In this document: positions 6,857 to 7,885 of the stretch, piece after piece
Layout of the letters: every line of letters begins with the position of its first letter
How positions within the stretch are numbered: position 1 is the first letter of the stretch
DNA from: Coraliomargarita sp.
GTDB taxonomy: Bacteria; Verrucomicrobiota; Verrucomicrobiia; Opitutales; Coraliomargaritaceae
Assembly: GCA_965216325.1 (NCBI GenBank)
Contig: OZ244160.1
Span: 1,152,001 to 1,216,000 of the forward strand
Direction of reading: 5' to 3'
Length of the DNA stretch: 64,000 nt
Made by a program: the position numbers and the translations under genes
Notes under the pieces: generated by a model
What the model saw: only the letters and a program-made list of their open reading frames with translations
Told to the model about the DNA's origin: nothing
Databases searched by the model: none

Positions 6857-6957
6857 TAAAAACAAAGGGACCCAGAGCCTACCCCTAAACCCTGGGTCCC
6901 ACTGTTTTCTGCTTTGTCTTATTACCCCAACTCTCCATACACAGGAGAAGATAACGT
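6857..6957 (-). ncRNA. Candidate small RNA, copy 1 (5' hairpin, UUGGGGUAA, terminator hairpin with UUAGGGGUAG loop)
   Basis: Stem gggacccag/ctgggtccc (6867-6900) followed by a U-rich tract on the minus strand; small hairpin tctcc/ggaga (6932-6948); paralogous to 7538-7633. Confidence 0.65.
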
Positions 6958-6967
6958 CGGTATATAT

Positions 6968-6984
6968 AACAGTATGCGTGCCAA
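6968..6984 (-). promoter_or_regulatory. Sigma54-like -24/-12 promoter for ncRNA copy 1
   Basis: Minus strand reads TTGGCACGCATACTGTT vs consensus TGGCACG-N4-TTGC; the -12 element is imperfect. Confidence 0.45.
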
Positions 6985-7091
6985 TAGTTCGGCCTGTTCA
7001 GCTATTTCCCGGAAATAGTTTATTTTGAGCATTTTTTGCTCAATTCAGTCGCCAGCTGGGCGAATATCCCCATCTGTTAGGTGCAATAGGT

Positions 7092-7454
7092 ATGCCTTTT
7101 TCCAAAAACATCGAAGATGTCATCGCCGACTTTCGCGGCTTGCCACGCACGGTGACGGCCTCGTCACGTCGCCCTCCGGTGCCGATTGGCAATCTTCTGG
7201 TGGTTCTTAAGGAAAAATACAAACTAGAGCAGCCGAGCCCAGAGCGAACTCTGGTTGAGAATTGGGGCGAGATTTTCGGAAATCTAGCCGGACGTTGTAA
7301 TCCAATTCGAATTAAGGACGGAAGGACTTTGGTAATATCCGTCACGAATCAAACGCTTCGATCTGAACTACAATTTCGTAAGCGTGCGATTCTGCAGAAG
7401 ATACACCAATTGGACAATTGCTCAGGAATTAATGAGCTGGTGATCCGCGGCTAG
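7092..7454 (+). CDS. dciA: DUF721 / DciA-family protein
   Basis: 120 aa; ENWGEIFG...CNPIRIKDGRTLVISV.NQTLRSELQFRKRAILQKI is typical of DUF721. Confidence 0.75.
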   Translation: MPFSKNIEDVIADFRGLPRTVTASSRRPPVPIGNLLVVLKEKYKLEQPSPERTLVENWGEIFGNLAGRCNPIRIKDGRTLVISVTNQTLRSELQFRKRAILQKIHQLDNCSGINELVIRG

Positions 7455-7537
7455 GAATAGCAACTGAGCTACTCATTTAGACTCGGTTCAACGGGTTGGA
7501 GCATTCTCGGTGTCAGAAGGCATTTGTTATCTGTGCA

Positions 7538-7633
7538 ACAAAAAAGGCGCGTTCCCTACCCCTAAGGAACGCGCCAACCATTGTCTACTTTATTCTGTTA
7601 CCCCAAACTCCCTTGCGGGAGAAATGTTGATGT
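7538..7633 (-). ncRNA. Candidate small RNA, copy 2
   Basis: Perfect 10-bp stem ggcgcgttcc/ggaacgcgcc (7546-7575) with loop UUAGGGGUAG, then U6; 5' hairpin CUCCC-GCAA-GGGAG (GNRA loop) followed by UUUGGGGUAA. Confidence 0.7.
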
Positions 7634-7885
7634 TTGGGAAGAAGCACATTTTTTCTTCGCCCTGCAAGTATTATTTTCAGGAATATGTATTTATTTCACG
7701 AAAAATATTTGCTCAACGCTCATATAGAAGAACTTACGCGTCATAATATTTTTCAAAAAAACCGCTTAGCACGATGATAATCGATACTTCTAGTCGTTCG
7801 TTGGTTGATTTCAGCCTTCTCGGTCCAGTCTTTATACGTATCTCAAGGCTTTTACCTCTTCAACGAAGAAAGCAATAAGGCAATC

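Follow-up and report, generated by a model that had tools for sequence, protein, structure and literature searches.

Two minus-strand elements beside dciA

The window analyzed here is a stretch of 64,000 nucleotides (nt) from the genome of Coraliomargarita sp. (Verrucomicrobiota, order Opitutales; contig OZ244160.1, positions 1,152,001 to 1,216,000), numbered from its first letter. Between an alpha-amylase-family gene that ends at 6834 and a 3'-phosphoadenosine 5'-phosphosulfate (PAPS) reductase gene that starts at 7922 lie the plus-strand gene dciA and, on the minus strand, two elements, T1 (about 7633 to 7538) and T2 (about 6957 to 6858), the subject of this work (Table 1). dciA is divergent from T2 and convergent with T1. 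The earlier note on this DNA had described the elements as twin small RNAs (sRNAs) of one layout, and pattern searching together with folding recovered both units with the same order of parts: a 5' hairpin (P1), the single-stranded UUGGGGUAA (motif 1), an A-rich, purine-rich linker that includes AAAG(U/C)AGA, a long, G+C-rich terminator hairpin (P2) with the apex UUA-GGGG-UAG (motif 2), and a U tail.

A search of the window for the composite pattern TTGGGGTAA-N25-45-TAGGGGTAG gave two matches, 6879-6930 and 7556-7606, each on the minus strand, and none of 100 dinucleotide shuffles of the window contained one. The spacing of the two GGGGUA motifs given earlier, 43 nt (6880/6923) and 42 nt (7557/7599), was recovered unchanged. 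The hexamer GGGGTA by itself is at chance level (12 occurrences in the window against 11.9 expected), 4 of the 12 falling inside T1 and T2. Elsewhere in the genome, both tRNA-Asp genes (G000 C1:200812-200888 and 201303-201379) start with GGGGUAG, the same heptamer as the terminator apex.

The predicted folds of the two units have energies of -45.3 and -43.4 kcal/mol (z scores of -4.8 and -5.1), and 0 of 200 shuffles were as stable. A terminator scan detected both hairpins, with stems at 6900..6867 and 7575..7546 and T runs after each on the minus strand; the 13-pair stem runs into TTTTTTGT and the 15-pair stem into TTTGTTTTT, as expected of intrinsic terminators. The loop of this hairpin had been said to carry the whole second motif. 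The motif does sit at the apex of a strong hairpin, but the minimum-energy fold pairs UUA with UAG, leaving exposed only the GGGG tetraloop and not the full UUAGGGGUAG. The probable 5' end of T1 was placed from promoter geometry and from the onset of conservation (CAUCAAC), and the +1 of T2 is predicted at about 6957 from the spacing of its -24/-12 elements. A small open reading frame (ORF) in T1 was considered and rejected: the linker AUG is not conserved, and some copies have AAUAG instead.

Table 1. Features of the dciA region, in window coordinates
Feature	Coordinates	Strand	Evidence
T1, predicted sRNA (type 1, element A), about 94-96 nt	7538..7633	-	model R1, 119.9 bits, E 1e-26; fold
T1 putative promoter region: A/T-rich tract, -35-like TTGCAG (7667..7662), 17-nt spacer, GCTTCT-type -10 (about 7645..7639)	7639..7690	-	
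T1 hairpin P1, CUCCC-GCAA-GGGAG	7608..7621	-	fold; compensatory changes at 5/5 pairs family-wide
T1 motif 1, single-stranded UUUGGGGUAAC	7597..7607	-	invariant TGGGGT(A) columns in alignments A2 and A3; order-wide retention
T1 A-rich linker AGAAUAAAGUAGACAAUGGUU	7576..7596	-	at least 90% conservation among 20 type-1 copies of many genera; unlike T2 linker
T1 terminator hairpin P2, 13 pairs	7546..7575	-	fold; terminator scan; 11-12/13 pairs covary
T1 GGGG tetraloop, motif 2 UUAGGGGUAG at P2 apex	7562..7559	-	apex invariant
T1 U tail	7538..7545	-	terminator scan
dciA	7092..7454	+	PF05258, E 5e-11; only DciA gene in genome
T2, predicted sRNA (type 2, element B), about 100 nt	6858..6957	-	R1, 53.6 bits; R2, 71.1 bits; fold
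T2 sigma-54-like promoter TGGCACG-CATA-CTGTT (GG 6982/6981)	6968..6983	-	conserved upstream of type-2 copies
T2 hairpin P1, UCUCC-UGUGUAU-GGAGA	6932..6948	-	fold
T2 motif 1 GUUGGGGUAAU	6921..6931	-	pattern and hexamer searches
T2 A-rich linker AAGACAAAGCAGAAAACAGU	6901..6920	-	identity or near-identity among type-2 copies from about 10 genera
T2 terminator hairpin P2, 15 pairs	6867..6900	-	fold; terminator scan
T2 GGGG loop	6885..6882	-	fold
T2 U tail	6866..6858	-	terminator scan

Both stems covary while the G-rich motifs stay constant

In family f1 the copies split into two types that match T1 and T2, hereafter types 1 and 2. Comparison of copies from relatives showed compensatory changes in both stems, at 16 to 17 of the 18 pairs, and constant G-rich motifs. 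In a model-fitted alignment of 100 hits (97 distinct), 17 of the 18 pairs covary and 99.3% of the cells are paired, and in another of 82 hits the values are 16 of 18 and 99.6%; such alignments lean towards structure. As controls on them, sliding the partners by 1 to 3 columns left 41 to 49% of the cells paired, and 0 of 500 shuffles reached the observed values. From a MAFFT alignment unfitted to any model, RNAalifold recovered the 13-pair terminator helix, 10 of its pairs with compensatory changes. It predicted 17 pairs in total, 4 of which belong to an alternative pairing of the 5' arm of P1 with GGGG in the misaligned MAFFT alignment. This alternative was rejected because P1 covaries, whereas GGGG never changes.

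All five pairs of P1 covary, with arms such as CUCCC/GGGAG, CUCUC/GAGAG and CUCCU/AGGAG, longer in Opitutaceae. UUUGGGGUAAC and YUUAGGGGUAGG are essentially invariant throughout the order, and the uppermost terminator pairs (U-A, A-U and U.G) never covary. The unstructured linker is type specific and near-identical across genera, at least 90% within each type, where the terminator stems of the same genera have diverged. Two type-1 copies (L005:1475-1598 and L024:1475-1597) carry in their linker an extra small hairpin of about 20 nt; the two hairpins are unrelated and stand at the same place, between GGGGUAA.. and AUAAAGUAGA, and the AAAGUAGA module is retained in both copies. The distance from motif to motif is therefore not fixed.

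The family is spread through the Opitutales and matches no known RNA

A loose two-motif pattern was found in 33 of 41 relatives, including 22 of the 24 genomes of the same family. A covariance model built from 20 type-1 copies (R1) matched 102 of 151 genomes of the order, 89 of the 130 of high quality and 68 of 90 genera, at 1 to 5 copies per genome. Among the listed genomes lacking an R1 match, many are tiny (0.8 to 1.3 Mb) and some measure 2.3 to 4.4 Mb. A phylum-wide sample gave R1 matches in each of the 25 other genomes of the order and in none of the 125 genomes from outside it. A broader model from 82 copies (R2) matched all 19 other genomes of the order in a class-wide sample and a single one of 131 outside it, marginally (E value 0.006, 29 bits). 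An exact-pattern scan of named species genomes yielded at least 121 loci; among the 80 matches listed, 79 bore titles of Verrucomicrobia or of an Opitutales lineage and one read only 'bacterium', and the titles included Opitutales, Opitutaceae, Puniceicoccaceae, Coraliomargarita, Pelagicoccus, Oleiharenicola, Ereboglobus, Lacunisphaera and Verrucomicrobia. It follows that the family spans the Opitutales and, as far as the searched genomes show, is limited to this order.

The suspicion that the elements belong to no known family held as well. Scanned against Rfam 15 at gathering thresholds, the whole window gave only a tRNA and a thiamine pyrophosphate (TPP) riboswitch, both elsewhere in the window, and in a permissive scan of positions 6700 to 7900 the best match was mir-1954, with 19.5 bits against a threshold of 99 (E value 0.36). 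The riboswitch (71 bits) lies at 26373-26489 on the plus strand and the tRNA gene at 39302-39374 on the minus strand. The full-text literature on sRNAs, RNA motifs and sigma-54 in Opitutales or Verrucomicrobia, as represented by titles and abstract openings, describes no such RNA, nor did it or Rfam 15 yield any described regulatory sRNA of Opitutales. Conservation throughout the order, compensation in both stems and constancy of the G-rich motifs bear out the idea of a sibling sRNA family; this putative family is previously undescribed and, in the genomes searched, confined to the order Opitutales (Verrucomicrobiota).

The two types have promoters of different classes

Each element had been credited with a promoter of its own, and the sequences upstream do conform to this, with a promoter conserved by type: tRNA-like for type 1, sigma-54-like for type 2. 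Upstream of type-1 copies from many genera stands an A/T tract with CTTGCA and, 17 nt later, a GCTTCT-like box, an arrangement that tRNA genes of this genome share; in Opitutaceae copies the -35 element is TTGAC, accompanied by a TAnnnT-like box. A generic sigma-70 scan returned 2 sites against 2.0 expected and did not pick the T1 promoter. Many tRNA promoters here have a (TA)GCTTC-like -10 in place of TATAAT, in combination with CTTGAC or CTTGCA and an A/T tract, which suggests that the primary sigma factor of the lineage may have an unusual -10 consensus.

The consensus of sigma-54 promoters has TGGCAC at -24 and a TTGC-like element at -12, with a GG-N10-G(C) spacing. The box upstream of type-2 copies, TTGGCAYG-N4-NTGY, has its GG and its -12 element at this spacing, the latter reading TGT in T2 and TGT or TGC in relatives. 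A strict sigma-54 pattern stands upstream of 9 of the 97 distinct hits, all 9 of type 2, and a sigma-54-like box lies at a fixed distance in all 12 type-2 copies for which upstream sequence is available (9 strict, 3 near-matches). The genome encodes one rpoN and three REC-AAA-HTH_8 response-regulator proteins of the sigma-54 activator kind, and further sigma-54-like sites precede other genes. With a promoter of this type, T2 should therefore need one of the three activators. Palindromes lie upstream of T2 in this genome, and no upstream activator motif common to type-2 copies across genera was found. One of the activators is encoded outside the window, its operon also containing genes for an H-NOX protein, a hybrid histidine kinase and DUF480 (L197, G000:C1:2109000-2115000). 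At this locus, a sigma-54-like site, TGGCACG-N4-ATGTA, faces the other way, towards a 167-amino-acid (aa) ORF without a Pfam match.

We infer transcription of T1 and T2 from their promoters, terminators and conservation. With its housekeeping-type promoter, T1 looks like a constitutive, strongly expressed gene, and T2 looks signal dependent.

dciA separates a pair that is tandem in most relatives

Most relatives have the two genes in head-to-tail order, separated by about 165 to 230 nt and with no gene between them. Only in this genome (G000) and in G001 and G002, of the same genus, are the units about 630 to 680 nt apart, with dciA between them and type 1 beyond dciA; G003, of the same genus, has kept the tandem form. 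In tandem relatives (L008, L011, L012 and others) dciA is divergent from type 2. The description of the elements as flanking dciA is thus true of this genome, but the arrangement is confined to three genomes of the genus, and dciA between the units is, by comparison with the relatives, a local rearrangement of a normally tandem pair.

Across the loci of the family, dciA is typically the divergent upstream ORF, in 11 loci and in the three loci of this genus. At four loci of other Opitutales families (L030, L038, L040 and L056) the divergent gene instead encodes a protein of 160 to 200 aa with a CxxC zinc ribbon and a C-terminal UVR motif, which we take to be McsA-like from its resemblance and which is unrelated to DciA. 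Elsewhere the neighbors vary, and no universal neighbor of the sRNA loci was found. Nor did the sRNAs show conserved complementarity to the dciA start region. We treat dciA as a neighbor of the sRNA genes.

The claim that no minus-strand gene lies upstream proved right, in that no minus-strand ORF of at least 40 aa directly precedes either unit except one antisense to dciA. In the window no same-strand gene lies downstream of T1 or T2, and in relatives the same-strand genes downstream vary between loci, an argument against their being cis-regulatory leaders. At L007 (G010:C40:17515-17972) there are three tandem type-1 copies, each with an A/T tract and a CTTGCA box, and no type 2. Upstream of the amylase-family gene, two long plus-strand ORFs (88-1965 and 1853-5065, 626 and 1070 aa) have no Pfam match at an E value of 0.001 or below.

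T1 and T2 as probable trans-acting sibling sRNAs

Each unit presents the general traits of a trans-acting sRNA that can be read from sequence: its own promoter, its own terminator and a conserved unstructured seed. On these grounds we put the probability that T1 and T2 are real, independent sRNA genes, trans-acting siblings each with its own promoter and terminator, at roughly 0.9. As to how they act, base pairing is the mode that we prefer, at somewhat less than even odds. T1 and T2 would then be base-pairing regulators acting in trans, whose seed would consist of the invariant single-stranded UUGGGGUAAC together with the next part, the purine-rich linker specific to each type. At the apex of the terminator, the invariant GGGG cap could be a second contact or an element of stability or recognition. 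The shared motifs would provide a common core, and through their different linkers and promoters the siblings would each have a separate target set and a separate input signal. We favor base pairing because a near-perfect, type-specific, unstructured linker beside an invariant motif resembles known seeds, and because no protein candidate fits a decoy model.

Several results weigh against base pairing. The targets were sought with crude ORF-based gene calls, approximate 5' regions and duplex energies without an accessibility term. The specific proposal that GGGGUA seed-pairs with UACCCC in mRNA leaders found no support: TACCCC occurs 34 times in 5' regions against 47 to 88 times for control hexamers, so that there is no enrichment, and predicted targets, with one exception kept only within the genus, did not exceed those of shuffled queries. 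Genome-wide, complementary 11- to 13-mers are spread evenly along the sRNAs, as by chance. In 31 genomes of the family, the exact complement of motif 1 showed no excess, with 41 hits, 24 of them the sRNA genes themselves and 17 others, against 27 for a backwards control. Duplex folding against 2721 5' regions gave best energies of -34.6 kcal/mol for T1 and -31.3 kcal/mol for T2, the T1 value belonging to a SulP sulfate permease leader, where eight shuffled or reversed query controls reached -29.8 to -33.2 kcal/mol; apart from SulP, the targets of T1 and T2 were not above the controls. The SulP site is kept only in G001, of the same genus (-31.5 kcal/mol), and scores -15.6 to -26.1 kcal/mol in 28 other relatives, G002 not being scorable. 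A second candidate, a gene for a trypsin-like peptidase with a C-terminal FHA domain located outside the window (L189, G000:C1:2203738-2205567), carries in its 5' untranslated region (UTR) adjacent stretches that complement the T1 linker and the T2 motif plus linker, and the gene is present in 0 of 30 relatives, hence unique to this genome. The glmS leader ranked 1804th (T1) and 1471st (T2) of the 2721 regions by predicted pairing, and dciA and cysH were unremarkable as targets. Neither motif, k-mer, duplex nor candidate tests thus established an mRNA target with conserved complementarity. Finally, recognition by a protein would likewise be expected to keep two motifs of 10 to 11 nt, one of which sits at a hairpin apex, invariant over an entire order.

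Alternatives to base pairing

The strongest competitor, which we consider unlikely though well worth weighing, is that T1 and T2 are protein decoys, each offering two GGGGUA sites, one single stranded and one at the apex, to an RNA-binding protein that may be dimeric. The decoy could be a sponge following the logic of CsrB/RsmY with a different motif, or could work like GlmY/GlmZ, with a sigma-54-driven T2 competing with a constitutive T1 for one protein. Such a role would account for the order-wide invariance of both motifs, and because the top terminator pairs that never covary are invariant too, recognition of a specific sequence is what they point to. It would also suit two sites per RNA, siblings that have their motifs in common and differ in linker and promoter, and a target search that turned up no convincing target. 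The strong conservation of the type-specific linker would be left unexplained by it. GGGGUA, moreover, is not enriched in 5' regions, with 21 occurrences upstream of genes against 61 to 63 for related hexamers, and only 6 of 86 TNGGGGTAR sites fall in putative 5' UTRs.

Nor did any candidate protein suit a decoy. Hfq (PF17209), CsrA (PF02599), ProQ and the N-terminal domain of KhpB (Jag_N) were not found in this genome, which is 99.98% complete. The titration suggested earlier, of CsrB/RsmY-like logic with a different motif, finds no support here, since CsrA was not found and the motif has no GGA. One small RNA recognition motif (RRM) protein of the 88-aa type is encoded (G000 C1:2480961..2481173 region), and in Bacteroides, which is without Hfq and CsrA, RRM proteins bind multicopy sRNAs composed of a single-stranded seed and a terminator (PMC11697453). 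Over the 151 genomes of the order, however, the phylogenetic profile of the RRM protein is unlike that of the sRNA, with sRNA and no RRM hit in G033 (100% complete), G034, G038, G042 and G053, among others, and RRM and no sRNA hit in G041, G047, G054, G079 and G087, among others. The RRM protein was therefore rejected as an obligatory partner.

In a more elaborate version that we hold to be doubtful, less probable than a decoy in general, T1 and T2 would form the RNA arm of an undescribed post-transcriptional system in which a protein reads GGGGUA twice and sigma-54-induced T2 decoys it or competes against T1, with the logic of GlmY/GlmZ and new components. If true, this recognition of RNA by protein would follow a new code, and the system would be a global regulator in the polysaccharide-degrading Opitutales.

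Far less probable is contact with a stable, conserved RNA, such as the 790-loop of 16S rRNA (GAUACCCCUG) or a tRNA end, by which ribosome biogenesis or function would be modulated. Order-wide invariance of the motifs would suit a very conserved partner, and the sole UACCCC in the 16S rRNA of the relative G122 (L231, position about 808) lies inside the conserved GAUUAGAUACCCCUGUAG of the 790-loop region, which is complementary over 8 to 9 positions to the loop motif UUAGGGGUA. This complementarity is probably due to chance, since a match of 7 to 8 nt within a 1.5-kb rRNA is, by our estimate, about what chance provides. The segment is also partly paired in the mature ribosome, which counts against such a contact, and no tRNA of the genome contains TACCCC.

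Slightly less credible still is the view that the elements are plain terminators, possibly bidirectional, or cis-acting leaders, whose shared motifs have no function. The hairpins do lie just past the ends of plus-strand genes (the amylase gene at 6834 and dciA at 7454), and the plus strand after the T2 hairpin is moderately T rich, but it is on the minus strand, where no gene lies upstream, that a T run comes after the stem. Terminators alone would also not require that about 60 nt before the terminator and type-specific promoters be conserved over dozens of genera, with neighbor genes that vary by lineage and, in most relatives, a head-to-tail order with nothing between. A mobile or dispersed repeat, like a repetitive extragenic palindrome (REP) or a miniature inverted-repeat transposable element (MITE), is very improbable, despite two similar copies close together here and up to five in some Opitutales genomes, because T1 and T2 are the only 2 copies in this 3.06-Mb single-contig genome; the position beside dciA is, moreover, stable across a family, terminal inverted repeats and target duplications are absent, and the layout is that of promoter, RNA and terminator.

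Comparison with described sibling sRNAs

Trans-acting sibling sRNAs are well known in bacteria; what appears to be new is an order-wide family with a structure supported by covariation and with type-specific promoters. The Qrr RNAs of Vibrio resemble T1 and T2 in being homologous sRNAs of about 100 nt with a conserved core and an intrinsic terminator, under a promoter dependent on sigma-54 and a response regulator such as T2 has. H-NOX-type input is known to feed LuxO in Vibrio, and the activator operon described above also contains an H-NOX protein and a hybrid kinase. Unlike Qrr, T1 and T2 have a G-rich motif and two hairpins instead of four, match nothing in Rfam and occur where Hfq was not found; T1 is not sigma-54 dependent, and the H-NOX/kinase/activator operon, though present, is not linked to T2. 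With GlmY/GlmZ they have in common a homologous pair with conceivably different roles, predicted sigma-54 control of one member, shared modules and a divergent single strand, but there is no Rfam match and glmS ranks low, as given above.

The head-to-tail arrangement seen in most relatives, about 200 nt apart with a promoter and a terminator for each gene, recalls PrrF1/PrrF2, OmrA/OmrB and AbcR1/AbcR2, which differ from T1 and T2 in their unrelated sequence; here, in addition, the promoters belong to different sigma classes and the pair is split by dciA. RsaE/RoxS, LhrC and the actinobacterial 6C RNA likewise have a short homopolymer-rich motif in a loop and in a single strand, conserved while the stems covary. 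Their motifs are C rich and pair with G-rich ribosome-binding sites, whereas that of T1 and T2 is G rich (GGGGUA) and its complement is not enriched near starts. Like CsrB, RsmY and RsmZ, T1 and T2 repeat an exposed purine motif that could titrate a protein, but they have no GGA motif and only two sites, and CsrA was not found. The Bacteroides sRNAs FopS and GibS, which the RRM protein RbpB binds, are similar in being multicopy, in the order of seed and terminator, and in a lineage that has small RRM proteins and neither Hfq nor CsrA (PMC11697453); they have no sequence or Rfam relation to T1 and T2, and several sRNA-bearing genomes have no RRM hit.

Meaning for the Opitutales

That one sibling has a tRNA-like promoter and the other a sigma-54 promoter leads to a clear, testable prediction about signal input, and the covariance model can be converted directly into an Rfam family. 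The apparent lack of classical sRNA chaperones raises the question of how RNAs of the T1/T2 type would work. Opitutales are common polysaccharide degraders of marine, freshwater, soil and gut habitats, and this putative sRNA family may offer an entry point into post-transcriptional control in Verrucomicrobiota.

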